Positions 1-38,876 of a DNA stretch of 64,000 nucleotides are shown here, one piece after another. The notes beneath the pieces were generated by a model, which did not search any database, had not been told where the DNA came from, and worked only from the letters and a program-made list of their open reading frames with translations. How positions within the stretch are numbered: position 1 is the stretch's first letter; every line of letters begins with the position of its first letter. A program made the translations under genes and the position numbers. Location of the stretch: sequence record NC_105514.1; one strand, 5' to 3'. This DNA comes from Escherichia phage JLBYU40.

Positions 1-15
1 TTTCAACTTTAATTA

Positions 16-750
16 TTACGCAACTTTTAATTTCTCAATATATTGTTGCGGGCTGCAACTATATTCTGCGCGTTCTTCTTCGGTCATACCTTCCCAACAT
101 AATTGCAGGCGGTCGGCTAGGAACTGATAATCATTATCATCCTCAAGAGATTCATCAATAAAGGTTTCACCTATCAATGTCACGCCGATTGATAGAATAT
201 CGTTAACGGCTTGCGCATCCAGCGTTTTAAATCCGTATGATGCCGCCGCTGATAGCACGCCTTTATGATCATCAATCATTGTAAAATCAGCGTTCGGATA
301 TAATTGTTTAAATAATTCAAAATAATAAGATTTATATACTGCGTCCTTGCTGTGGTATATTTCGCTAACCTTATCAGCTTCAAAATATTTGTGTAGTGTA
401 TCGCGGGAAAATACACGGATATTACTATCCCCACGCCCTCGCAATCCTTGTTTACGCAAATAATAATAATCCGACTTGCTCATCAGTCGAGCGGTACAGA
501 TAATGTTTAACGTGTTAACATCATTCATGCACTGGCGCATATATGTAACAAGGGGCAATAGTGTATCTTGCATTATTAAATCATGTTTGCAGGCTTCATT
601 TTTATACTTATTTAAATCTAAATTGCCCTCGCTATCAAAGCAAGGCGCTACACGATGAAACGAATTAATGATAGTGCCGTCCAGATCCCAAATCATGACG
701 CGGGAAATATGCGGGAAATTACGGGTAATATTCGTTTTAACTTGATTCAT
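16..750 (-). CDS. dmp: HAD-superfamily phosphatase, likely 5'-deoxyribonucleotidase (T5 Dmp-like)
   Basis: 244 aa; N-terminal IWDLDGTI (HAD DxDGT motif); first gene of a dmp-A1-A2-like array. Confidence 0.6.
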   Translation of the reverse strand: MNQVKTNITRNFPHISRVMIWDLDGTIINSFHRVAPCFDSEGNLDLNKYKNEACKHDLIMQDTLLPLVTYMRQCMNDVNTLNIICTARLMSKSDYYYLRKQGLRGRGDSNIRVFSRDTLHKYFEADKVSEIYHSKDAVYKSYYFELFKQLYPNADFTMIDDHKGVLSAAASYGFKTLDAQAVNDILSIGVTLIGETFIDESLEDDNDYQFLADRLQLCWEGMTEEERAEYSCSPQQYIEKLKVA

Positions 751-830
751 TTTGTTACGTTCTCCATTTAAGGGATTAGATTAATTCAGCATTACCCGCT
801 ATTTATAAGCGGGTAATAATAAATTAACTA

Positions 831-1223
831 TTAAAGACCATAAGCCAACGCATCAGCGATAAAACTAACATCTTCACCCGATACACTGGAACGAATCCCC
901 GCACAAGTATATACTTTTGCGCTGATCAATTGATCATCAAGACAAGCGGGGCAAGGCGCGACAACTGCAAAGGCTAGGCCGGATTTTACGGCGTCGATGA
1001 TAATCGTTTCTTGTTTCACCGTGTCAACATAAACGCCTGCGGCCTTAATGTAACTACTTGCGCGGCCTTGCGTATAGGCAAAGGTAGTAACCTGCAAAGC
1101 GTCATTAAAGTCTAGTAGTTCATCAATAACGTGCCCTGCCTCGACGTGGTAACGTTCGCCGTTAGAATAAACCAGAACAATTGAGGACTGAGCGCGATCG
1201 AATGGAATATTTTGCTTTTTCAT
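831..1223 (-). CDS. hypothetical pre-early protein
   Basis: 130 aa ORF, co-oriented and tightly packed with neighbours. Confidence 0.45.
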   Translation of the reverse strand: MKKQNIPFDRAQSSIVLVYSNGERYHVEAGHVIDELLDFNDALQVTTFAYTQGRASSYIKAAGVYVDTVKQETIIIDAVKSGLAFAVVAPCPACLDDQLISAKVYTCAGIRSSVSGEDVSFIADALAYGL

Positions 1224-1261
1224 ATTTATATAACTCCAATTAGTTTAATAAGGGGTTTAAT

Positions 1262-1519
1262 TTATTTGATAATAATCTGCATCTGGTACGGCGTTAATTC
1301 ACCGTTTACGGGTAAATTATTATCGCTTAGCCACTCATAAAAAGCACCATCATCATCAAAAGGGACAATATCGTTATCACGGGAATCGACGGAAATAATA
1401 CCATCCGTATTAGTTTTGGCGGCTAGGATAGGCCCGAAGCTGTAAACTTTATCAGATTCCATTTCATCCGGTGAAATGAATACTTTTTCGTCCAATGTTT
1501 TGGGAAGAGTAACTTTCAT
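1262..1519 (-). CDS. hypothetical pre-early protein
   Basis: 85 aa ORF, acidic. Confidence 0.4.
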   Translation of the reverse strand: MKVTLPKTLDEKVFISPDEMESDKVYSFGPILAAKTNTDGIISVDSRDNDIVPFDDDGAFYEWLSDNNLPVNGELTPYQMQIIIK

Positions 1520-1536
1520 TTAATTTAGCTCCTATA

Positions 1537-1562
1537 ATAGCGGCTATATTTCAAGCCGCTAG
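1537..1562 (-). terminator. intergenic hairpin after the A1-like gene
   Basis: 8-bp stem TAGCGGCT/AGCCGCTA with 8-nt loop. Confidence 0.35.
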
Positions 1563-1575
1563 GGGAATAATTTAA

Positions 1576-3330
1576 TTACGCGAAAAATTTACCGTTTTTA
1601 AAGTCAATCAAAGTACGCTGACCGTTTGCATAGGTAATTAAATGCGTTTGCGTCCAGCTTGACGCGCCAACGTTGTAACCCATATCCAGACTACCAGCTA
1701 CGCCAGCGGTATAAACGCCGCCATAAATGCTTGCCGTATGAGTATGCCCTGTGTTTAATTTGCCCAATTTCTTAAATTGTTTCGGGTTGCCACGGCTGCC
1801 GTTAATGCCATTGTGACCGTGTACGCCGCATTCAATGCCTGCAATTTTAAATGATTGGTCAGTTGTTAGAAAAATGGCGTTAAACTCGCAACCTGCAACC
1901 TTACGCAGCGCATAATCTAGCACGTTGAAAGTATCGTCTTTTTCTGCAATAGCTCCATAAATCGCGGCATTTAGGCGGTGATATAGTTCCGCGTTTGCGG
2001 GGTCGTCTTTAATGTTAGCATTACGATCATCCAGCCAACGGGATAGCGCCAAATCGTGATTCGATTCAACAATGATCGTTTGACTAAAATCACGTTCCAT
2101 CGATTCCAGCACGCGCCCCGTATCGATAAGATCATCCAGAACTTTATCACGTCCGGCGGCATACTGTTTTGCTAGGAATACACCCGAAGCGCGGTTGTGA
2201 TGGTTGCGTGATGTAAAGTCGTGAACGTCATGGATAAACTGATATTTTGGTTTAAGAATATCAAGCAAGCTATTTTCGCCAGCCCATGACGCGGCGGCGC
2301 AATCGTCATCTAATTTTTCAGCGTGAATATCACCATATTGCAAGCCTAAAACATGCCCCGATGTTTCATAACATCCGGCGGGAGTGGCGCAAACATTCAG
2401 ATCATAAAACACGCCGCTTTCGTCCATTGTTTCAAGCTGGCGAACAAAAAATTCCCCGTCGTCGTCGAACTCAACAATCAGCGCCCCGAAATTATGCAGT
2501 GCTTCCGCTTTCTGCCCTGCTTTCTGCTGAATGTAATTTTTGAGCGTTGCCGTTCCGGTTGAATACATGCGGCGCACAATTTCACCTTTTAAAGCTGGCA
2601 CGCTTTCGGCGGTGATTTTAGCGTGACCAATTGCCAGACCTTCAAGATTAAGCGCGGTTGCAGTTTCAGCGAATCCAGATAGCGGATAGTCTGCGGTTGG
2701 CAAAACATTAATTTCAGCCATGAAAGCAAAACGGCGATTATTCAAAAACACGTTTTTGCTGCAAATATATTTATCGAACGCGGAATCATATTTTATTCCA
2801 TCCGCGCCCTCGCCATTTTGGAATCCGTTTTTATTATAAATATACTTAGAAACAAGCAAATCAGCGCCACAATATTTAGCATATTGTTCGAGCGAGGACA
2901 AAAAGTTTTTATGCGGGAACGTATTATTCTGAATCGATGTAATAATAAAGCGTTTACCCTGCTTTACTTCCCATTGTTCAACCGTGCTAGAAACAATCCC
3001 CGCCGCTTCTGGGCGCTCATCGTTTTTAATGGCTTTTGCTGCTTTCGCCGCTTTCGGTTTAGCTGGTTTATTTGCTTCCAACCAATCACAAATGGCGGTC
3101 GAGTGTTTTGTTGTATCGTAGACCGCTTTTGATATATCGTCGCAGACCTCCAGTTTAGTGGCGCGCAGACGTTTACCATAGAAATTAAAGTCAGCGGCCA
3201 TTTTCAGGATAGCGGTTTGTTTTTCTGCGGAAATAATCATAGTATAAAACTCCATTAAAGGGACTAGGTTAATAACGGCAATATTGCCAAATATAACGCC
3301 TATTATTTGAGGCGTTATAATTTGCAACAT
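1576..3330 (-). CDS. A1: pre-early A1-like protein with C-terminal metallophosphoesterase motifs
   Basis: 584 aa; C-terminal GVHGHNGINGS...GHTHT calcineurin-like motifs; size and position match T5 A1. Confidence 0.55.
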   Translation of the reverse strand: MLQIITPQIIGVIFGNIAVINLVPLMEFYTMIISAEKQTAILKMAADFNFYGKRLRATKLEVCDDISKAVYDTTKHSTAICDWLEANKPAKPKAAKAAKAIKNDERPEAAGIVSSTVEQWEVKQGKRFIITSIQNNTFPHKNFLSSLEQYAKYCGADLLVSKYIYNKNGFQNGEGADGIKYDSAFDKYICSKNVFLNNRRFAFMAEINVLPTADYPLSGFAETATALNLEGLAIGHAKITAESVPALKGEIVRRMYSTGTATLKNYIQQKAGQKAEALHNFGALIVEFDDDGEFFVRQLETMDESGVFYDLNVCATPAGCYETSGHVLGLQYGDIHAEKLDDDCAAASWAGENSLLDILKPKYQFIHDVHDFTSRNHHNRASGVFLAKQYAAGRDKVLDDLIDTGRVLESMERDFSQTIIVESNHDLALSRWLDDRNANIKDDPANAELYHRLNAAIYGAIAEKDDTFNVLDYALRKVAGCEFNAIFLTTDQSFKIAGIECGVHGHNGINGSRGNPKQFKKLGKLNTGHTHTASIYGGVYTAGVAGSLDMGYNVGASSWTQTHLITYANGQRTLIDFKNGKFFA

Positions 3331-3528
3331 TTAACTAATCGGCATTAGACTAGAACTAACACCACAAACAACGGCGGCAATAAAGCAAAGTAAGCCTAAA
3401 CGCTTTGCCAATTTAGATTTACGTTTAAAATAATATGAATCTAAATCATTTTGAAAATAAGCGAATAGTAATGAGGCCGCCATAATAAATAAACCTAGAA
3501 TTAACGATTCAGTAGGGTAAAAGATCAT
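3331..3528 (-). CDS. small membrane protein
   Basis: 65 aa, two hydrophobic segments; start abuts A1 stop. Confidence 0.4.
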   Translation of the reverse strand: MIFYPTESLILGLFIMAASLLFAYFQNDLDSYYFKRKSKLAKRLGLLCFIAAVVCGVSSSLMPIS

Positions 3529-3582
3529 TTTAATAACTCCTGATTTAAGGGAAGAAAATAACTATCGCTAAACAGTTATATT

Positions 3583-3609
3583 CTTGCCCCCTCACTAGAA
3601 GGGGGCAAG
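3583..3609 (-). terminator. strong hairpin after the A2-like gene
   Basis: 9-bp G/C stem CTTGCCCCC/GGGGGCAAG. Confidence 0.45.
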
Positions 3610-3618
3610 GTATAACTA

Positions 3619-4026
3619 TTATTCGCCTGCGGCTTGTTTCACTTCATCGGCAACGCCTAACAGTTGCGCTACGGCGTCCAGCGTTTCAAGTTTTGCACTT
3701 TCCAGACTTGCCAGATCGTCGGCGTCTTTAATAATGCCGGAATCGATAGCATGTTTAGCAATAACGCGCACGTAATGCGCTTTGCGGATTGAGCTACCGC
3801 CGCCAACTTTACGCGGCTTATCGCTTTTCTGATACGCTTTTGCGCTGGTCAATTTTGACCGAACGGATACGGGAGAAGCCGCGCCAACTGCTTTTGCAAT
3901 TTCTTTTAAACCGTCGCTATTTGCGAAATCTAAACCGTTTTCATTGATTAACTGCTGGTACATAGAAACAGCTTTCTGAGTGTTTTCTTCATTCCATGAG
4001 AATTTTGCGGTTTTAACGTTAGTCAT
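3619..4026 (-). CDS. A2: pre-early A2-like protein
   Basis: 135 aa; synteny downstream of A1-like gene; strong hairpin terminator follows at 3583-3609. Confidence 0.45.
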   Translation of the reverse strand: MTNVKTAKFSWNEENTQKAVSMYQQLINENGLDFANSDGLKEIAKAVGAASPVSVRSKLTSAKAYQKSDKPRKVGGGSSIRKAHYVRVIAKHAIDSGIIKDADDLASLESAKLETLDAVAQLLGVADEVKQAAGE

Positions 4027-4124
4027 GGTAAAAACTCCTATTAGTTTAATTTAAGGGATAAGATTAACATAATGTTAATCATTATATTCCCCATATTTCA
4101 GAGGAATATAAAGTTAACACTAAA

Positions 4125-4376
4125 TTATAAAACAGCTTCCCATTTTTCGTTGCGTTGAACAACCTTTACAACGTCGCCGGATTTAACGCGAACGCTAAAA
4201 ACGGTTTTGCCGTTGTTACTACGTTCATTTTCAGCGTATACCGCGTCGATTGTATCAAACGGCATAAGCGCCGCACCTTTAATACGTTCGGCTTTTCCGG
4301 TTAATTCATCCGTTTTAGTAACGAAAGGAATAAAAACGGATTGACCAATTTTTGGCGCGGTAATAACGTTTTTCAT
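4125..4376 (-). CDS. hypothetical protein
   Basis: 83 aa ORF. Confidence 0.4.
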   Translation of the reverse strand: MKNVITAPKIGQSVFIPFVTKTDELTGKAERIKGAALMPFDTIDAVYAENERSNNGKTVFSVRVKSGDVVKVVQRNEKWEAVL

Positions 4377-4412
4377 AGTATAAACTCCGAGTTATTTGGT
4401 GGATTGTTCCGC

Positions 4413-4439
4413 ATTACCTGCTGGAAAGTAGCAGGTAAT
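4413..4439. terminator. intergenic hairpin
   Basis: 10-bp stem ATTACCTGCT/AGCAGGTAAT with 7-nt loop. Confidence 0.4.
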
Positions 4440-4574
4440 AAGTAACAATCCGCTCGCCAGTATAATCGATTTAAAGAACTCCACGTAGGCCGCTATATCC
4501 CAGTTAGGGGGCGGGATGCATTATGGTAAGCACCGACCGTCAAATTTTATCAAGTTATCGCTCTTATCGAACTG

Positions 4575-4598
4575 GGTACATCTTAAAACCTATCGGCT
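4575..4598. repeat. left arm of 24-bp inverted repeat
   Basis: GGGTACATCTTAAAACCTATCGGC; 23/24 match to the reverse complement of 4841-4864. Confidence 0.7.
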
Positions 4599-4604
4599 AG
4601 GTTG

Positions 4605-4808
4605 TCAAACTATTTTTTGCAGTTTTTTATGATTTTCTTTCAGGTCAATCATAATATTGCGCCAGATCATTTCCAGACCTTGCTGGCGGCCTTTCTTGTA
4701 CTGCTTAAATCGCCATTTTACCGATCTTTGCGCTACTGTCAACAATTTTTTAGTTTCGCTATCCAGTGCCTTGCTAGGTTTACCAGTGATCAATAAAGTT
4801 TGTTTCAT
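4605..4808 (-). CDS. small basic protein flanked by 24-bp inverted repeats
   Basis: 67 aa, K/R-rich; bracketed by near-perfect inverted repeats at 4575-4598 and 4841-4864. Confidence 0.35.
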   Translation of the reverse strand: MKQTLLITGKPSKALDSETKKLLTVAQRSVKWRFKQYKKGRQQGLEMIWRNIMIDLKENHKKLQKIV

Positions 4809-4840
4809 ATCGTCGATTCCTTATATTATATAAGTTTACC

Positions 4841-4864
4841 GCCGATAGGCTTTAAGATGTACCC
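4841..4864. repeat. right arm of 24-bp inverted repeat
   Basis: GCCGATAGGCTTTAAGATGTACCC. Confidence 0.7.
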
Positions 4865-5581
4865 AATTTTTAAAGAGCGTGGCGGTAAACTTCCCGCCGT
4901 GTAGTTCGTCATTGCCGCCCTACGAGGTAAATACTAGCAAATACCAAAAATGGCGCAACCTTATTTTTGTAAAGAAACGTAAAGACACGATTCACCGGAT
5001 GGCGTGCGGCGACCTGGGCGCGGCGCATTAAAATTAAAGGAAACGGGCGCGCGAATACCACAAAACATAGCAGATAGGCAAGTAATTTTTTCATTTATAT
5101 TTGCTTTGCCCTACTTGACAAAATCTAAAAAGCTCAGGGTAGCGATAAACGGGCTATCCCTTTATGATGGGATGCCTGAAAAATTTACCGCGTCAGAAAG
5201 CGTTTTAGGCGGCTTATTTTCGATTTAACAAATATTTAACAAAAGCAAAATTGAAAAATAGTTGAAAAAGGTCTTGACTTTTAAAAATCAAGACTAAACG
5301 AGTTATTTTATAAAATTAATTAATTGACTTTTGTTTGTTGTTGTGTATTAGAAAGATAGCAGACTAATAATTACTAGAATGATAATCATGCTGGTGGATT
5401 GTAACAGCCTGAACCATTAGCAGACTATTAATCACGGAAAATCTCATTAGCCAACTAACTATTTCATGATATATAATATACTTATAAATTAATGAGAAAT
5501 AATAAGTATAATAAATAATAACTACAGTAAATAATAACTATAAGAAATTATCGGCCTAAGTGAGAACCACTATCATTTAAG

Positions 5582-5689
5582 TTATCCACAAGTTTATTAA
5601 CAGCACAAAATGATTTGACACGATAGGCGGCGATATAAAGACTTATCTACAGACTTATCCACAGGTTATCCTACTGTATAAATATACAG
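5582..5689. repeat. left arm of ~110-bp imperfect inverted repeat with DnaA boxes
   Basis: TTATCCACA at 5582-5590 and 5655-5663, TTATCTACA at 5643, palindrome CTGTATAAATATACAG at 5674-5689. Confidence 0.65.
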
Positions 5690-5956
5690 GGTAAATGGGT
5701 AGTATATTATAAGGATGTCGATTTTAAGCGGCCTAAAACGCTTTCTAACGAGCTAAATGCGGTGGGGTAATATTAAAGTAAAGCCTTCACCCGTCGCCCT
5801 GGTGGCTTCGCCGTGTTTTGCTCTTTATTACACCGCTGCGCGGTTATCATAAAAATATGCGCTAGGCAAGGAAAATAAAAAGGTAAAATAATCTTTGCCT
5901 ATGCTAGAAAATTACCTTTATCATTCACTCACCGATTAACGAGGGAGGCTGAACAA

Positions 5957-6967
5957 ATGAGGCTTTATAAACCTGATAATGCCACCGTTTTAAAAGGTGC
6001 ATTGCGCAACCTGCTGGACGGTAGCAAGTCAACCAGCATTAAACATTTTATTAACAAGGTTGAAACTATTCATCAAAACTTTTTTGATGAATATGACGCC
6101 TATGATATGGATAGTTTTCTACCCTTATATAAGCAAGGGGCAACGCTAGTTTTATATAATCGGGATTGCCATATCTTTACAGGCAGGGGAGCGGGACCGG
6201 ATACCGATTTTATTGTTGCGCAGGGCAATACTATTGTTGCGTATCATAGCAATTCAGGCCGTCAATCATTTAATATAAATGCTTTTGAGCTTATTGGGCT
6301 TGATCTTATAAACGGGCTTTCTAGCATTGAGGGATTTTTAGATGTTATCTGGAAGTATTTACCCGCTGGATGGTATAAGCCGGATAATGACGGATCTCAA
6401 TATACCGCTATAATGGCTTTTGATGGCGATGGTAATTTTTTGTTACCTTCGAAATTATACCCTTATGTATATAATGATCTAATAGAAGAGGCTGGTTTTT
6501 CTTTCTGGAAAGATGATGATCAGCCCATTGACAATATAGAAAACCATGCTGTAAATTCTAACACTCAAAGCGTTAACACTCAAACTACTGAAAACAAAGG
6601 AAAAAATACCATGACCAAGATCGCTAATATCGTTGCCGCTAATAAATCCGCCGTTGTAAATGCTGCAAAACTGGAAGCGGGTAAAATTGCACTGACTCAA
6701 ATTACGAAAGTAGCGGCTAAAAAAGCACCGTTCATGATTAAAGGTTATATTGATACACCTATCGGTCGAGTAGTGATTGCCAACCTGCTGAGCGTAGCGG
6801 TTGACCAGTATGCCCCGAACAACCAGAAAGCGAAAGCGGTAGCAGGTGCAGCTATGGAAGCGGCTATGTTAGAAATGGTACAAAGTTTCAATATTGCTGA
6901 AATGATTGATGAAATGGTAAAAGGTATTGATATTTCTACTTTTACTACTAACACTGAAAGCGAGTAA
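5957..6967 (+). CDS. hypothetical pre-early protein (336 aa)
   Basis: RBS GAGGGAGG upstream of ATG; first gene of plus-strand cassette between inverted-repeat arms. Confidence 0.55.
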   Translation: MRLYKPDNATVLKGALRNLLDGSKSTSIKHFINKVETIHQNFFDEYDAYDMDSFLPLYKQGATLVLYNRDCHIFTGRGAGPDTDFIVAQGNTIVAYHSNSGRQSFNINAFELIGLDLINGLSSIEGFLDVIWKYLPAGWYKPDNDGSQYTAIMAFDGDGNFLLPSKLYPYVYNDLIEEAGFSFWKDDDQPIDNIENHAVNSNTQSVNTQTTENKGKNTMTKIANIVAANKSAVVNAAKLEAGKIALTQITKVAAKKAPFMIKGYIDTPIGRVVIANLLSVAVDQYAPNNQKAKAVAGAAMEAAMLEMVQSFNIAEMIDEMVKGIDISTFTTNTESE

Positions 6968-7084
6968 TAAATAATCTAATGTAAAGTTTTGTAAAGGCCG
7001 CCTTTTATGGTGGCCTTTTTTGTTATAATGCCTTTACACCGTTTGAGGACGGTTGAAAATTTCCCAAAAAATTGGAGGCTTAAA

Positions 7085-7315
7085 ATGGTTGCATATTCTT
7101 CTTCTGACGCTCTTTTCACTGGAAAAGGCTGGGTATCAAATCGCTGGATCATTCAAGAAATGGTGCAAGAATACGGCATTGCTAAAACTTACACTACCAT
7201 TCAGGCGCTTTATGATAATGATCAAATCGATCAGCAAACGGCTGGCTTTTTGCTGGATACCCTGAAGGCGGAACATTGCACCAAAAAACAAGCCGCTAAA
7301 ATTATTTTAATGTAA
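7085..7315 (+). CDS. hypothetical protein
   Basis: in-frame ATG at 7085 preceded by RBS TGGAGG; the longer 7007 start lacks an RBS. Confidence 0.45.
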   Translation: MVAYSSSDALFTGKGWVSNRWIIQEMVQEYGIAKTYTTIQALYDNDQIDQQTAGFLLDTLKAEHCTKKQAAKIILM

Positions 7316-7513
7316 TTAATAACGGGGCGTTACTTTCGCCCCACTAACTAGGAGAATGAAAATGGTTATTTTTCGAGCTATTTTAGCGGGTATCTTGGGC
7401 GCTATTTTATCGTTGTTTGCAATAGCTTTCGGTGTTCACGCCGTTATTATCGGCGCGGGGATTGCCATTTTTTCTTATTTGCTGGGCTGCATGACTAGTA
7501 AAGGAGAATAAAA

Positions 7514-7726
7514 ATGATCCGCAACGTTTCTCTTGCTCGTTCGAAAGGCTTTAAGCTGGTGGACGTTAACACGTTCGAGCGTGAAGATTGTAAAATCGAA
7601 TATGTAGCGCGGAATAAAAACGCTTTTCGTGTTACCGAGAAAAAATTCGATAAGCGCGGCAACGTGATAGCTGAAACAGTTAAACATTTTGCCACCTTTT
7701 ACGCTGCGTTTCGTGGGGTACTATGA
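7514..7726 (+). CDS. hypothetical protein
   Basis: 70 aa; RBS AAGGAGA upstream. Confidence 0.45.
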   Translation: MIRNVSLARSKGFKLVDVNTFEREDCKIEYVARNKNAFRVTEKKFDKRGNVIAETVKHFATFYAAFRGVL

Positions 7727-7849
7727 AAAGCGTTATCATTATTATCCTTGCAATGGTTGGCGGTTTTACCGCCACCTTATTTAAAAATGATCCCCTTTTA
7801 CTGGGGATTTTTATGCTTTTATCTGGCTATCTGATTGGGAGGTTATAAA

Positions 7850-8194
7850 ATGGTAATTTATGAAGGCAATCGTTTTGTTGCTAATTGCCGTCCTGCATTG
7901 CTAGCAAATTACTTAAATCAGCTTTCACCAGCTTATAAGGGCGTCATTAATATTTACGAGGGCAAAGCGCATTATAAGATTAATGCGGTCGTTGCCCGTG
8001 AACTAGCGTTTCAATTTTTGACCTTTGCATCTTGTGACGTTCAGGTCATGGGTGAGGCGTTAATTGCAGAAAATGATGATGATTTTATTAACATTTTTCG
8101 CAAGGTATGCACCGAGCGCCTGATAATGAAAGGCGCATATATTCAATCCACTGCGGATAGTATTGAAACAGCGTTTCGAAAGGTGGCGCAATGA
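7850..8194 (+). CDS. hypothetical protein
   Basis: ATG at 7850 preceded by RBS GGGAGG; internal start of the 7835 ORF. Confidence 0.45.
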   Translation: MVIYEGNRFVANCRPALLANYLNQLSPAYKGVINIYEGKAHYKINAVVARELAFQFLTFASCDVQVMGEALIAENDDDFINIFRKVCTERLIMKGAYIQSTADSIETAFRKVAQ

Positions 8195-8367
8195 AAAAGT
8201 TTTTAATAGCTGGCATGTTTCCCTTGTTGCCTTATGTAATTTGCTGGGCTTTATATGCTCATGGTGCTAGTGTTCCCGGTGTGGTGTCATTTGGTGTATC
8301 GGCGGGCTTTCTAGCTGGACTATTGGCAAGCGTATATTTACGCAAATAATTAATAACGGGGGTTATT

Positions 8368-8562
8368 ATGAGCAATAAAATTATTGTAACCAAAACTACC
8401 ACAATGGTTGACGTTTTTTATGTGCCCGATACGCCGGAAAACCGGCAAGCGGTCGAGCGTGGCGAGTATGATAAAGTGATTTATGATCACGATGGTTATT
8501 ATCAGCATTTGGTCGATTCCTACGGGGAGGAGGAGAAGATCACGCATCAATTACCTGACTGA
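8368..8562 (+). CDS. hypothetical protein
   Basis: 64 aa; RBS-like GGGGG upstream; last gene of the cassette. Confidence 0.45.
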   Translation: MSNKIIVTKTTTMVDVFYVPDTPENRQAVERGEYDKVIYDHDGYYQHLVDSYGEEEKITHQLPD

Positions 8563-8705
8563 TAACAAGCGGGGAGCAGATCCCCGTTTTTCACGCCTCC
8601 AGATAAATACCCCTCTGTTTTAGTATCCCCACCAAAATTAAACGCGTTAGAATGCGATTCAGGACGGTTTAGCGGTATATTAGAATTATTCACTACATAG
8701 GAATA

Positions 8706-8813
8706 CTGTATAAATATACAGTAGGATAAGCTGTGGATAAGTCTGTTAATAATGCCTCAAAATGGCTAGGATTTTGTCAAGTCAAATCGTGCTGTTGATA
8801 AGTCTGTGGATAA
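8706..8813. repeat. right arm of ~110-bp imperfect inverted repeat with DnaA boxes
   Basis: same 16-bp palindrome at 8706-8721; TGTGGATAA at 8732-8740 and 8805-8813; shared AACAGCAC...GATTTGAC blocks. Confidence 0.65.
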
Positions 8814-8829
8814 CTTAAATAGCAGTGTT

Positions 8830-8876
8830 TCTCACTTCCATTTTTAAATGCGAGTCATTATCATTTGCATTTCACT
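8830..8876. repeat. 47-bp direct repeat, copy 1
   Basis: TCTCACTTCCATTTTTAAATGCGAGTCATTATCATTTGCATTTCACT. Confidence 0.7.
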
Positions 8877-8933
8877 ATCTAACCGATAATCATTCCACTT
8901 TTTAAATGAGAATCATTTCACTTCCTGAATAGT

Positions 8934-8980
8934 TCTCACTTCCATTTTTAAATGCGAATCATTATCATTTGCATTTCACT
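8934..8980. repeat. 47-bp direct repeat, copy 2
   Basis: identical to copy 1 except one base. Confidence 0.7.
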
Positions 8981-9046
8981 TTTTAAATGAGATTGATTCT
9001 CATTATCATTCGCATTCAAGCGGGCAGGGCAATTGCCCTGCGCTTT

Positions 9047-9647
9047 TGTGCAAATCCGACATTGCTCCACTGGTGTTACGTGTGGGCATGTATGTGCGAA
9101 TCCGACAATTTTTGGTAGTGTGCAAATCCGACCCGAAAAATTTTTATAGTGTGCAAATCCGACAATGAATTTTCCCAAAAACTCCAGCAATCCGATGCTG
9201 CGCATCAATCCTGTGGAATTAGCTAGAATATGTGCAAATCCGACATGGGTTTATTTGTGCGAATCCGACAAGATTTTTGTGACTTTGATTGGAGGGTGTG
9301 TGATTGTATGGGTTTGAGGAGAAGATGAGAGAGTGAGAGAAATTTGAGGGAACTGTGAGAGGGGCGCAGGATTGGTGCGGAGCACCTGATTTGCGGGGAT
9401 TTTGGGGAAGAGTTGAGAAGATTTGGGTTAATTTGAGATAGGTGCAGAAAAAGCGAAATTTTATTAGCTAAAGGGGGTAAAATAGCTTGACAAGTGAAAA
9501 TTTCTGTGGCTCAAAAAACACAAGCAATCATGGGCCTTCGGCCCGAAATAATGCTGCTATTTTCAGGAGAGTAAGAGTTCCTAAAAACTTAGGCGTTTGT
9601 GCAAATCCGACCATAAATTTCTAGAAATGCAGTGTGCAAATCCGACA
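9047..9647. repeat. iteron array: 8 co-oriented copies of TGTGCRAATCCGACM
   Basis: copies near 9047, 9093, 9118, 9150, 9230, 9256, 9598, 9633. Confidence 0.7.
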
Positions 9648-9690
9648 GTAATTTCTGGAAATGTGTTTTCAAAAAATGTTTCCTAGAAAT

Positions 9691-9763
9691 AACCGCCCTC
9701 CCTATAACCGCCCTGTATTAAACCGCCTAGTATATGTTCCTAGAAACTTAGGAGAACCGCCCT
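9691..9763. repeat. cluster of four AACCGCC(C/T) repeats with CTAGAAA palindromes
   Basis: AACCGCCCT at 9691, 9706, 9755 and AACCGCCTA at 9721. Confidence 0.6.
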
Positions 9764-10110
9764 AGAAAGAGCGGTATCTCGTGAGAACTCTGGAGTTTCT
9801 AGGAAAGTGTTATGCCATCCTAGCAGATGAGCGGCAACAGGTGTATCATCTTGAACACAGATATTGCCTTTAAATATTATAAGGTAAATTAAAAGTAAAG
9901 TAGCCCCCATTACATGTGTGCTTACTCGTGGGGCGCGTGATTAATTACGTAAGTCCTCGACTGTCATACCCCTGTTGCTCGGTCGCAAAGAGTTAACGAA
10001 GTCTCGTGTAATAATCATCGCCCCTAGAGTTCAAAACAAGAGTTGTTTTTAATCTATGTGATTATTATAACATGTGCCGCAATGAGTTGTCAAGAAGATT
10101 TTGTTAACGT

Positions 10111-10338
10111 TTATACATCCTCTTCGAGATTGGTATTGGGATCGTAAATTTTCTTAGCTCCTGTATTTAATAGGAATCGCTCTGCAAGTTGTGGGTGAAT
10201 ATCAAAGAACTCTGTGCATCCTTCGAATCCCTTTAAATTACAGCGGTATTTCTTAAAGTAGATATGTGCAGCGGCTTCTAGATCTCTAGGATTATGGGTT
10301 TCATAGATTCCCATACACGTATAAATCGTCAAAACCAC
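10111..10338 (-). CDS. hypothetical protein
   Basis: 75 aa ORF. Confidence 0.35.
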   Translation of the reverse strand: MVLTIYTCMGIYETHNPRDLEAAAHIYFKKYRCNLKGFEGCTEFFDIHPQLAERFLLNTGAKKIYDPNTNLEEDV

Positions 10339-10454
10339 GATAAACTATCTTATCTAAGTTTAGTGTTTGAATCCTATTATGTGGGTTCATACTAATACTG
10401 ATCTTTGTTCTCTTAGGGATCTTCGTCAGATCCCTATTTGCAAGAATATATACT

Positions 10455-11171
10455 TTATATAGTGACATTCTTTCTAGCCTTGAGTTTGATACCGAGAGAT
10501 GCGAAGTAGATATAAGTTGCTAAATAGGACATAGCAGATCCTGTCTCTTCGTAAGACAGAGTCCCTTTCACGTACCGCTCATATTCTGGCTCTAGATTAA
10601 TAATCGTAGTACTTGGCAATCCTAGCGAATTACATAATGATTTGAATGTTTCTTTATCTCTATGAATCGCATAGTGAATGGCTTTCTCTGTAGGAGTTAG
10701 TTCTAGATCTTTGGTAATGGCTACGTGCAAACTCGCTATAGTCATGCCAATTCCACGATACGTTTCTTCCTTATTAAGGGAAGGTTTCTGTTTCTCTAGC
10801 TCAGGAAGATGTGCAAATTCTCCTTTCTTTCTAGGAATCTTATCATCACTAAGTAATGCTGTTAAGAAATCTGTTTCTTCATAGGCTGGGAGCACTTCAT
10901 CAATCAATACTAGAATAGAACTAGCATTGATACCTTTCGCACTAGGATCTAAAGATTTTAACGCTTTATTAGTTTCAACGTAGGAGCCTGCTAATACTAC
11001 CTTTGAGCTATTCCTATCATATTTAATTTTATTAGCTTCCCAACGTGCAGGACGATAATCAGATAGGAACATTACAGCATACTTCTGTTCATCAGTTAGC
11101 TCAGAGAAACATTTCTGGTTTGATTCTTTTGCTAATGCAATAAGATGCTTTAGTTTTTCTGCTTTATTCAT
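10455..11171 (-). CDS. hypothetical early protein
   Basis: 238 aa ORF. Confidence 0.5.
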   Translation of the reverse strand: MNKAEKLKHLIALAKESNQKCFSELTDEQKYAVMFLSDYRPARWEANKIKYDRNSSKVVLAGSYVETNKALKSLDPSAKGINASSILVLIDEVLPAYEETDFLTALLSDDKIPRKKGEFAHLPELEKQKPSLNKEETYRGIGMTIASLHVAITKDLELTPTEKAIHYAIHRDKETFKSLCNSLGLPSTTIINLEPEYERYVKGTLSYEETGSAMSYLATYIYFASLGIKLKARKNVTI

Positions 11172-11625: not shown

Positions 11626-12246
11626 TTAGTAATCTCTTTTATCCTCATTAATAGCAGCCCCTAACGCCTCCATAATAACATCTTCTAAACTTCCATGTTT
11701 ACTAGGATTATTAAAATGAATAGTGCAAATAGAACTCCTAGAAACTCCAGCATCCGCAGGTGCTACGCTTCGCATATCAGATTCAAAAGCTTCTTGGGTA
11801 TGTTGCAACTGTACAGAAGGGCCGTAATCTTCACCAAACTTATATGACTTCGTACTACTTACCACACCCCCACAAGGAACATTGTGCATATCCGACATTA
11901 ATCTTTTATCGGAGTTACTCAGCATTGAGATTGGCCCTGACTGCCACGGATCTCGAATAGTCACAGGAGTACTAGGACGGTTAACCTCAGTCTTCACAAG
12001 TTTATAACCAGCATCTATTAATGTGTTAATAAGGTTATCAGCTGGAATGCGAGCCGTGCCAAAAATCTTACGAGCATCTTCGAGCTTACCTTCAAGATCT
12101 TTACAGGCTCTAAGGTCAGTGTGTGCAAATGTTAGCTTCATAGATTTGAACTGTACAGTGGCAGTTAAGTCTTTAAAGCTATAATCCCATGTGTTCAGTT
12201 CATGATCTGGTACTACTTGAATAGCTTGTTGTGTATTAAAAGTCAT
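11626..12246 (-). CDS. hypothetical early protein
   Basis: 206 aa ORF. Confidence 0.5.
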   Translation of the reverse strand: MTFNTQQAIQVVPDHELNTWDYSFKDLTATVQFKSMKLTFAHTDLRACKDLEGKLEDARKIFGTARIPADNLINTLIDAGYKLVKTEVNRPSTPVTIRDPWQSGPISMLSNSDKRLMSDMHNVPCGGVVSSTKSYKFGEDYGPSVQLQHTQEAFESDMRSVAPADAGVSRSSICTIHFNNPSKHGSLEDVIMEALGAAINEDKRDY

Positions 12247-12431
12247 TATTTATTCTCCAGTTTGTCTAACAGTTTATGGGCTGCTAGGTTATATTGTTTA
12301 AGCTCACGATTAAGGATTTGGTTTTCACATTTTAACTCCAAATTCTTATTATTAAGAATATTACAGATTAGTAGAAGTGCTAGTATAACTAGCAGGGAAC
12401 CCACGAGCATTAAAAGAAAAAGAGTTTCCAT
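12246..12431 (-). CDS. small membrane protein
   Basis: 61 aa, one hydrophobic helix. Confidence 0.4.
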   Translation of the reverse strand: METLFLLMLVGSLLVILALLLICNILNNKNLELKCENQILNRELKQYNLAAHKLLDKLENK

Positions 12432-12664
12432 TATTTAATTCCCATATAGCGTTTGAGGTATATGATGAAGTCTTCTGTTGTATGTTCTACGCTACCCTGA
12501 ACCACAAACAACTTTAAAGCCTCTCGCTGTAATTTAAGAGCAGCCAACTCACCACGTAATTTTGTTATATCTTCCGCTAGTTCTCTAGCTCTGCGCATAA
12601 TAGCAAATGATACAAATGTTACAATAAATAACATAACTGCTAAAATAATTACTATGATCTCCAT
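12431..12664 (-). CDS. small membrane protein
   Basis: 77 aa, N-terminal hydrophobic helix. Confidence 0.4.
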   Translation of the reverse strand: MEIIVIILAVMLFIVTFVSFAIMRRARELAEDITKLRGELAALKLQREALKLFVVQGSVEHTTEDFIIYLKRYMGIK

Positions 12665-12942
12665 ATTAACATCCAGCTCTTATCGTATATTTGGGCATGT
12701 TCTACTAATTCATTTATCGATATAGAATTATCGTAGATACCCTCTAGTAAACGTTTTCTGTCAAATTTATCAACCAAATACTCTGTGCCATTTATCACTA
12801 CCCTATACAGCTCTGGAACTAAGGAGTGTTTGTTTGGTATTGGGCGACTACCTAAGTCTATTTCATTATATCCCCACGTTGTTTTAAATAGTTTGTTACT
12901 AAGTGCTGCTAGTGGGTTTGACCATACAATATAGCTACTCAC
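12652..12942 (-). CDS. hypothetical protein
   Basis: 96 aa ORF. Confidence 0.4.
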   Translation of the reverse strand: MSSYIVWSNPLAALSNKLFKTTWGYNEIDLGSRPIPNKHSLVPELYRVVINGTEYLVDKFDRKRLLEGIYDNSISINELVEHAQIYDKSWMLIWRS

Positions 12943-21952: not shown

Positions 21953-22552
21953 TTACTCTTCGTTGTACCCATCGAATTGAGGTAACTGGGCTTTATTATA
22001 TTGCTCAGATCGATATTTTGCCAAGATTTCAATACGCTTATGGATTTCTTTGCTATCTAGATAGATATTTTTGTTGTCTTTTACCATCTCGTCGATTTCA
22101 TCTATTGAGAAGAATGGATAGTAGACATCTAGCATCATATCTTCTACGAACTTGTTGTAAGATTCATAGGCTTTCTTGATTTCTTGACCTTTCTCACAGA
22201 ATCCGCCAGAGAACGTGTGTCCCATTAACGTAGCATGTGGATGTACTACCCATCCATGACAGGATAGGAAAATTGTGCAGTAAGCAGAAGCACTAGGACC
22301 AATCAGATGTCCTATAACTGTTCCACGGCAATTAGCAATTAAGTTAGATAACTGTGCAGCAGTATCAACATAACCACCCGGGCCATTGATCATCAGATTA
22401 ATTTCGTCGTCCTCATTTGCCTGCATAAGTACCATTGATAAATCACGGTATTCATCCGGCGGGCCTAATTCTTCATCAAAGAAAAAGGTATACTCATTAG
22501 ATTGGCGAATGGAGTGAAACAGGTTAGTCTTTTCTTCTTTTTTATTAGTCAT
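21953..22552 (-). CDS. ClpP-like serine peptidase
   Basis: 199 aa; INGPGG (cf ClpP INSPGG) and GPSASAY Ser-motif-like segment. Confidence 0.45.
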   Translation of the reverse strand: MTNKKEEKTNLFHSIRQSNEYTFFFDEELGPPDEYRDLSMVLMQANEDDEINLMINGPGGYVDTAAQLSNLIANCRGTVIGHLIGPSASAYCTIFLSCHGWVVHPHATLMGHTFSGGFCEKGQEIKKAYESYNKFVEDMMLDVYYPFFSIDEIDEMVKDNKNIYLDSKEIHKRIEILAKYRSEQYNKAQLPQFDGYNEE

Positions 22553-38810: not shown

Positions 38811-38851
38811 TAAATACAGAAAAGCCCTGCGCTCTCTAGGAAACGCAGGGC
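38811..38851 (-). terminator. Rho-independent terminator for the SPFH gene
   Basis: 9-bp stem AGCCCTGCG/CGCAGGGCT with a T-run on the minus strand. Confidence 0.55.
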
Positions 38852-38876
38852 TTATTTCAGATGTTACATGCGGGTA

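Follow-up and report, generated by a model that had tools for sequence, protein, structure and literature searches.

The 64,000-nucleotide stretch of DNA analysed here (hereafter the window) comes from Escherichia phage JLBYU40 (sequence record NC_105514.1), a T5-like phage of the family Demerecviridae. It contains a repeat-rich block at about 8620-9780. Judged by its sequence, the block is the ortholog of Repeat Region 3 of phage T5, the region with the annotated injection stop signal (iss), and it appears to be a conserved non-coding module that acts in cis, located where a long terminal repeat ends on its right. We consider it slightly more probable than its negation, with a probability of about 0.55, that the block serves as a two-part nucleoprotein platform controlling the two-step transfer of phage DNA into the host cell. 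The block has already been described. Since its 47-mers are the DRE repeats of T5 and its 15-mers are the DRD repeats, the repeats reported below are a rediscovery of a published and annotated feature. Our data support the injection-stop reading of the block, which is an accepted but unproven assignment.

A megablast search with the region returned 473 phage records, nearly all from T5-like Salmonella, Escherichia and Klebsiella phages, with identity up to 93%. In most of these records the region has no annotation or is covered by a “DTR/LTR” feature. Global pairwise alignment of the window with T5 gave 79% identity across the block. In the T5 record AY543070 the misc_feature “injection stop signal (iss)” occupies 9140-10149, the left terminal repeat occupies 1-10219, and a “major DNA single-chain interruption” is located at 9748/9749. 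According to the same alignment, the iss corresponds to window positions 8554-9442, the end of the left terminal repeat to 9512, and the interruption to 9043/9044. Conservation was scored per column in an alignment of 19 non-identical relatives: columns 8620-9720 are 85-100% conserved, and the flanks about 30-60%.

A sequence-only reading of this DNA had proposed a candidate injection-stop or protein-binding array at 8830-9770, near the terminal-repeat boundary. This proposal agrees with the “iss” annotation of the homologous T5 DNA and with the list of DRE and DRD repeats given by Davison (2020, bioRxiv 10.1101/866236). Self-alignment and motif search found every repeat element where that reading had placed it. 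At the left edge, the proposed limits omit the inverted-repeat element with LexA and DnaA boxes at 8685-8837, because the conserved block begins at about 8620.

The gene order of dmp, A1 and A2, followed further on by the block and the early genes, is retained, and the block has the rightward pre-early operon on its left and the leftward early genes on its right. The operon ends with a plus-strand hairpin and T-run at 8570-8591, which aligns to the “putative rho-independent terminator” of T5 (9275-9296). Between this terminator and the first leftward open reading frame (ORF) at 10111 we found no supported ORF in the ORF list, Pfam or PHROG. The repeat field had indeed been read as free of ORFs: the longest ones there do not exceed 86 aa, six have no PHROG match, and the curated T5 and BF23 records have no gene at this place. 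An Rfam 15 scan of 8300-10600 (E ≤ 1) yielded no credible family, only two sub-threshold matches at chance level.

The anatomy is that of T5. The order is the same: the terminator, the IRD'-spacer-IRC' element with DnaA pairs 3 bp apart, DRE1 and DRE2 (each of about 66 bp), the nick palindrome, the DRD series, the repeat end, and an overrun of about 270 bp; an inverted partner lies about 3 kb to the left. The differences are minor ones in sequence and in the number of DRD copies, nine in T5 versus eight here. The border between first-step and second-step DNA of BF23 (PMC10644984) is likewise non-coding and rich in direct repeats, inverted repeats and DnaA boxes, and differs in that its fifth DRD copy is located 10 bp further left (71/35 versus 81/25).

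The end of the terminal repeat was placed by homology, using three annotated genomes (T5, BF23 and MM-1) and eight contig ends. The ends annotated in BF23, whose terminal repeat is 9743 bp long, and in MM-1 (10407) align to window 9512, as does that of T5. Eight contigs of IMG/VR that end in the right terminal repeat break off 256-258 nt past the sixth DRD copy, all with the sequence ...TTCTGTGGCTC. The sequence-only reading had put the field at the end of the pre-early region. The repeat end does fall within the field; it is not at the field's edge, and repeats go on past it to about 9780. As the repeat ends at 9512, DRD copies 1-6 lie inside the terminal repeat, while copies 7-8 and a cluster of AACCGCC and CTAGAAA motifs lie outside. 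A terminal-repeat boundary far from the field had been named as evidence against the proposal; because the boundary maps inside the field, this objection does not arise.

Published work on T5 indicates which part of the block is the better candidate for the stop. Davison (2020, bioRxiv 10.1101/866236) divides Repeat Region 3 into the IRD'-spacer-IRC' element with paired DnaA boxes, two 66-bp DRE, nine DRD, palindromes and the overrun of about 270 bp. DRE and DRD are treated there as components of the presumed iss region, whose sequence, by Davison's account of earlier work, was first reported in 1987 and further described in 2005. First-step DNA is defined by shearing infected cells, and the estimate for T5 is about 9618 of the 10,139-bp repeat (same source). 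Simple arithmetic puts this shear point, 521 bp left of the repeat end, at about 8991 of the window, within DRE2. Because the iss is thought to be situated left of this shear point, the DnaA-box element and the DRE are the prime stop candidates. The 15-mers and the AACCGCC repeats are weaker ones, since all of their copies are located to the right of it, and two of the 15-mers and all AACCGCC copies are outside the terminal repeat. In Davison's model, the DnaA boxes are held by membrane-bound DnaA, and cutting of the DNA by A1/A2 follows; by its author's own statement, the model assigns no role to the many repeats. According to the same author, a pause that lasts until A1 and A2 are made has been verified for T5 and BF23 only. 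The A2 protein is reported in the literature as a double-stranded-DNA-binding dimer needed for the second step. A 2026 preprint describes the iss merely as a repeat-rich non-coding region.

The left part of the block begins with the IRD'-spacer-IRC' element at 8685-8837 (column conservation 0.93). Its inverted partner, the “IRC-spacer-IRD” of Repeat Region 2, which Davison (2020, bioRxiv 10.1101/866236) described for T5, is found at 5558-5710; the 153-nt arms are 73% complementary. Within 8685-8837 predicted DnaA boxes form two pairs, each with 3 bp between its members (8732-8740 and 8744-8752; 8793-8801 and 8805-8813). Strict boxes, TTATCCACA, start on the minus strand at 8732 and 8805, and on the plus strand at 5582 and 5655; the two arms thus hold 4 of the 10 strict DnaA boxes of the window. 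The paired boxes, which are the main stop candidates of the literature, start just left of the 8830-9770 field.

Beside the DnaA pairs we found a predicted LexA box, TACTGTATAAATATACAGTA, at 8704-8723. It matches the consensus TACTGTATATATATACAGTA at 19 of 20 positions, and a LexA-like box in the inverted partner (5672-5691) matches it at 17 of 20. Both have the form of a LexA operator, i.e., a 20-bp palindrome with a CTGT-N8-ACAG core near the consensus; this core occurs three times in the 64 kb versus 0.67 expected. The LexA box is kept at 19/20 in T5 and BF23, at 18-19/20 in divergent lineages, and at 18/20 in two Vibrio-phage lineages and Proteus phage PM135. Each of the two boxes coincides in part with a weak promoter-like site (5683-5710 on the plus strand and 8712-8685 on the minus strand). 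The text of Davison (2020) contains neither “LexA” nor “SOS”, and the LexA box is unreported in the literature searched. The putative operators resemble E. coli LexA operators and the DnaA clusters of oriC in their match to the consensus and in the close pairing of strict boxes. They differ in location: here they would stand in the non-coding terminal-repeat end of a lytic phage, not at an SOS gene or an origin.

The two plus-strand DRE repeats follow at 8829-8895 (DRE1, AT-rich) and 8933-9016 (DRE2 with a third copy of TCATTATCATTYGCATT). Two 47-bp direct repeats had been noticed before, and they form the near-exact core of the DRE (8829-8875 and 8933-8979, one base different, starts 104 nt apart); the repeat extends to 67 nt with 88% identity. 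The region contains 10 Fur-box-like matches versus 0.65 expected, concentrated in the DRE, and the best of the block (8989-9007, 16/19) is in DRE2. Such boxes in the DRE are unmentioned in the literature searched. Throughout the 64 kb, matches of at least 15/19 are found only at 120-144, 4068-4086 and 8989-9007, all inside the terminal repeat; one of the three lies a short way upstream of A2, and such matches may be inflated by their AT-rich context.

The left part ends with a near-invariant palindrome, GCGGGCAGGGCAATTGCCCTGCGC, at 9017-9046 (minus strand). The “7.9% nick” of T5 aligns within it, to 9043/9044 of the minus strand, and the stretch 9000-9060 folds somewhat better than its shuffles (z = -2.1). 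A KOPS-like GGGCAGGG inside the palindrome is present in a single copy and is not significant alone. No consensus sites for IHF were found in the block. As for other nicks, the T5 record AY543070 notes the one at 22336/22337 as identified by consensus match.

The right part begins with the DRD array. The 15-mer, TGTGCRAATCCGACM, has eight exact copies in the window versus 0.01 expected from shuffles of the window. All are on the plus strand, in line with the co-orientation that the sequence-only reading had reported, and they start at 9047, 9093, 9119, 9150, 9231, 9256, 9598 and 9633. The six copies inside the terminal repeat (9047-9270) have start-to-start distances of 46, 26, 31, 81 and 25 nt. 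After each of the two outside (9598-9661) comes a TTTCTRGAAA palindrome, and the pair makes up a 35-nt tandem unit. The series 46-26-31-(81 or 71)-(25 or 35)-about 343-35 is kept in nearly all relatives, and the T5 type adds another interval of 137. The fifth copy occupies one of two positions exactly 10 bp apart (81/25 or 71/35), and the distance from DRD1 to DRD6 is constant at 207-209 nt. A count over 46 loci gave 330 copies, every one of them in the same orientation. The cores are conserved at 0.92-1.0 (0.74 for the shifted fifth copy) and the spacers at 0.87 among the 19 relatives. The 15-mers are probably recognized by a protein, because they are non-palindromic, strictly co-oriented and conserved base by base. 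In an informal comparison by eye, the consensus sequences of CRP, FadR, PurR, CytR, NtrC and XerC do not fit the 15-mer.

Several observations concern the DRD or nick motifs elsewhere in the window. A DRD-like 15-mer with one mismatch, TGTGCATATCCGACA, is located at 11883-11897 within the early ORF 11626-12246, and most relatives have one further DRD-like match about 1.7-2.1 kb past the array. A second CCTGCGC nick-type motif at 38827-38860 belongs to a hairpin that resembles a terminator; in a genome of the size of T5 it would lie at about 32%, near the classical 32.6% nick. There is no DRD at this CCTGCGC site, and DRD is therefore not a general companion of nick sites.

In IMG/VR the pattern of paired DRD was found only in contigs of 104-123 kb. 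The motif extends beyond the enterobacterial phages. In Vibrio phage Chazly21 (Ermolyevavirinae, MN966731), with an A1 protein about 31% identical, eight co-oriented copies of the DRD core GTGCAAATCCGA are located around the end of a 7,636-bp repeat. The repeat boundary of the record falls within a DRD-like copy, and inside the repeat there are a tandem AT-rich repeat, two DnaA boxes and a LexA box. The DRD core, the DnaA pair and the LexA box recur in Chazly21 and also in a second Vibrio-type lineage (L155/L180), where three DRD copies are inside the repeat and three outside; a divergent enterobacterial lineage (L023/L008) has six inside and three outside. A factor that reads DRD would be highly conserved, since the DRD core reaches Vibrio phages. 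The literature searched does not mention the DRD core of Vibrio phages straddling the repeat end. In 11900-12760 of Chazly21 the core has the form TCGGATTTGCAC, CCTGCGC directly precedes one DRD copy, the DnaA boxes are again paired, and there are also a LexA palindrome and a tract rich in G whose last letters are TTGAC.

The array is not found in every relative. Proteus phage PM135 has other repeats and no DRD array; Shewanella phage 1/4 has an A1 homolog but neither a T5-like layout nor DRD. Conservation in the Vibrio phage does not extend to the gene adjoining the array, and a search for related loci with the flanking early protein gave one locus only. A looser pattern of three GTGCAAAT 8-mers was uninformative in the viral collection, where it matched at least 120 unrelated tandem-repeat loci. 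A scan for two DRD cores in 185,579 bacterial and archaeal genomes gave eight unrelated matches, none of them in enterobacteria or vibrios, which argues that their chromosomes contain no DRD array. Among the proteins of the phage itself, A2 (3619-4026, minus strand) matches a PHROG family annotated “DNA binding protein”, and Pfam and PHROG gave no other DNA-binding candidate among the neighbouring ORFs.

Between DRD6 and the repeat end there is a G/A-rich tract (9271-9486, plus strand) that is the compositional extreme of the window. It had been called purine-rich, and its place was given correctly; with 5.6% C and 67.5% purine at 9284-9480, “C-depleted” is the better name. It contains both the most C-depleted and the most purine-rich 200-nt stretches of the 64 kb, has a GC skew of +0.64 to +0.75, and is kept in the divergent relative L023. 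An inverted repeat has its arms at 9171-9213 and 9367-9409. In minus-strand RNA covering 9480-9284, C would account for 39% and G for 6%, which is how a site for Rho loading onto leftward transcripts is composed; the plus strand is G-rich. The conserved right terminus of the terminal repeat, TTGACAAGTGAAAATTTCTGTGGCTC, follows on the plus strand at 9487-9512, and the repeat ends after 9512. Just outside, 41 nt at 9527-9567 are near-invariant in the alignment of relatives and include the hairpin GGGCCTTCGGCCC at 9532-9544.

Further right, at 9676-9770, four plus-strand AACCGCCY motifs start at 9691, 9706, 9721 and 9755 among CTAGAAA elements, in accordance with the four AACCGCC(C/T) repeats reported from the sequence. 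These four fall within 9691-9762, and the whole window has six versus 1.84 expected; CTAGAAA, counted on both strands, occurs six times in 9618-9802 versus 28 in the window. The ninth DRD of T5, 137 nt after DRD8, is missing from 9676-9770 here. Position 1 of the window is position 109 of the T5 terminal repeat, and about 108 nt of the genome's left end are thus absent from the window; the corresponding leftmost stretch of T5 includes an AACCGCC copy 35 nt from the end.

We infer the following scheme of binding events and of stop and restart roles. During the first step, the left part (about 8685-9046) would be the last to arrive in the cell. It would offer high-affinity operators for abundant host proteins, namely the LexA box, the paired DnaA boxes and the Fur-like boxes in the DRE, together with the putative nick palindrome. 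Bound on emerging, it would hold the DNA jointly with the inverted partner at 5558-5710. The right part, i.e., the DRD array, the C-depleted tract, the repeat end, and the further DRD and AACCGCC copies, would stay outside the cell during the pause. It would be an array of sites for one conserved factor, and its role would follow the pause: when A1/A2 restart the transfer, it would most plausibly be gripped before any other DNA. We also considered a more detailed version, a “host-operator trap” combined with a terminus-defining array. There, near-consensus LexA, DnaA and Fur sites would load host repressors and arrest the entering DNA, and a DRD factor, with the promoter-driven hairpin described below, would restart entry and set the right end of the 9.5-10 kb repeat at concatemer processing. 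In this full form it is quite unlikely.

A number of points weigh against the two-part platform. The sites for LexA, Fur and DnaA are assigned purely by their match to a consensus, which for Fur is AT-rich, as are the DRE repeats. The shear point at about 7.9% is an estimate published with no stated error. The literature searched contains no experiment linking DRE, DRD or AACCGCC repeats to the pause or to protein binding, and the BF23 paper (PMC10644984) says that experimental studies of these sites are lacking. The similarity of A2 does not track the array, as its identity is 42% in a DRD-bearing Vibrio phage and 40% in the DRD-less PM135. Finally, the presence of DRD outside the terminal repeat, and of arrays straddling the repeat end in several lineages, fits the formation of genome ends at least as well.

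This last function is the strongest of the alternatives, and we regard it as tentatively possible, though clearly less probable than the platform, with which it is compatible. According to it, the right half, from DRD1-6 through the C-depleted tract, the conserved terminus, the invariant hairpin, DRD7-9 and the AACCGCC repeats to the promoter and long hairpin further right, would mainly be a signal for genome-end formation and the start of packaging: a terminase or an accessory protein would read DRD at the concatemer junction, set the cut at 9512 and help to duplicate the terminal repeat. The repeat end lies within the DRD field at its fixed distance from DRD6 in eight genomes, and DRD straddle the end in every lineage with both repeat copies available (L023/L008, L155/L180 and Chazly21). 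The 41 nt outside the end are nearly invariant, and a conserved promoter with an extended -10 is directed toward the end, reading through a long hairpin on the way. Repeated sites directly beside the terminus-generating cut, as in cos- or pac-like systems, occur in the T5-like, divergent and Vibrio lineages. The R sites of lambda cosB and the short-repeat arrays with a promoter and a hairpin at T7 concatemer junctions are terminase recognition arrays at genome ends. The block is similar to them in having short repeated sites by an end-forming cut, with a promoter and a long hairpin near. It is unlike them because its motif is absent from the other repeat boundary and its repeat is about 9.5-10 kb long, not 160 bp; in T5 the left and right boundaries share no significant motif except the 7-mer AACCGCC. 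Moreover, PM135 lacks the DRD array, the cut or recognition site of the T5 terminase is undescribed in the literature searched, and the packaging direction is presumed from general phage biology.

Three other explanations are less likely. The repeats could serve as transcriptional punctuation or regulation between convergent units, with LexA, DnaA and Fur operators on weak promoters and palindromes as terminators. The C-depleted tract would then be a Rho loading site, given its C-rich, G-poor minus-strand RNA, and would keep leftward early or non-coding transcripts out of the repeat. That composition, the terminator at 8570-8591, the weak promoter-like sites at both LexA boxes, and a perfect leftward promoter at 10093-10064, separated from the repeat end by no intrinsic terminator, are all consistent with this. 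Still, termination leaves unexplained eight precisely spaced identical 15-mers conserved across subfamilies, and a simple promoter and terminator scan found 7 promoter-like sites in the block versus 7.0 expected from shuffles, which makes this explanation rather doubtful. It is very unlikely that the pause results from DNA structure alone (cruciforms, bends, the nick), with no sequence-specific proteins and with the repeats only building the structure. The block is dense in palindromes and inverted repeats, and the nick palindrome folds somewhat better than shuffles, but the 15-mers are non-palindromic, co-oriented and conserved per base. Davison (2020, bioRxiv 10.1101/866236) also cites complete ejection of the genome in vitro into FhuA proteoliposomes, and DNA alone thus does not block the transfer.

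The least probable is an iteron-type replication origin or a plasmid-like maintenance site, built from DnaA boxes, the AT-rich DRE as an unwinding region, DRD as iterons and a phage initiator. All these architectural components occur within one 600-nt stretch. Iteron origins of the RK2 oriV type share with the block DnaA boxes, AT-rich repeats and co-oriented repeats of about 15-17 bp at irregular spacing. Here, however, there is no adjacent initiator gene: the neighbouring ORFs are a homing-endonuclease fragment and members of families of unknown function (Pfam, PHROG). The DRE is not the lowest-GC stretch of the window, which is near 5450, and the array straddles the genome terminus. Davison (2020, bioRxiv 10.1101/866236) does liken the DnaA-box arrangement to oriC, but also states that replication genes are unexpressed in the first step and refers to electron microscopy studies that place the T5 origins near the genome centre.

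The pause of T5 entry at about 8% of the genome and its restart have been an open question for more than 50 years. As the block is the accepted cis-acting candidate for the stop, its correct dissection would matter to phage biology, and it would also bear on how host defence systems use the pre-early window. Our analysis of the two-part platform provides several handles. The near-perfect LexA box and the Fur-like boxes beside the DnaA boxes are testable. The DRD core, which reaches Vibrio phages and straddles the repeat end, separates the “stop” and “end formation” hypotheses. A further handle is an unannotated promoter and hairpin unit adjoining the repeat.

This unit (9790-10093, minus strand) starts from a perfect sigma-70 promoter at 10093-10064, TTGACA-18-TATAAT with the TG of an extended -10. 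The -10 element is conserved as TGTTAT(A/C)AT in 17 of 23 relatives. The transcript is predicted to start near 10057 and to fold into a small hairpin and then a long one (about 9923-10030), with z = -3.7. Among seven alignable relatives, 13 of the 70 predicted pairs have compensatory changes, and five unrelated versions of the core each fold into one hairpin of 108-149 nt (z from -4.9 to -8.3). A comparable promoter is present in the Vibrio phage, where the CATAG start and the small 5' hairpin are unchanged but the fold is weaker (z = -1.9). Rfam gave no match to the unit, and a conserved promoter with a long variable hairpin by the repeat is unmentioned in the literature searched. We regard it as a candidate structured RNA or functional DNA palindrome. 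Next to it, the minus-strand ORF at 10111-10338 (75 aa) is a homing endonuclease fragment (phrog_18411, E = 7e-26; PF13455), which fits the poor conservation and the cassette-like variation of 9800-10400.

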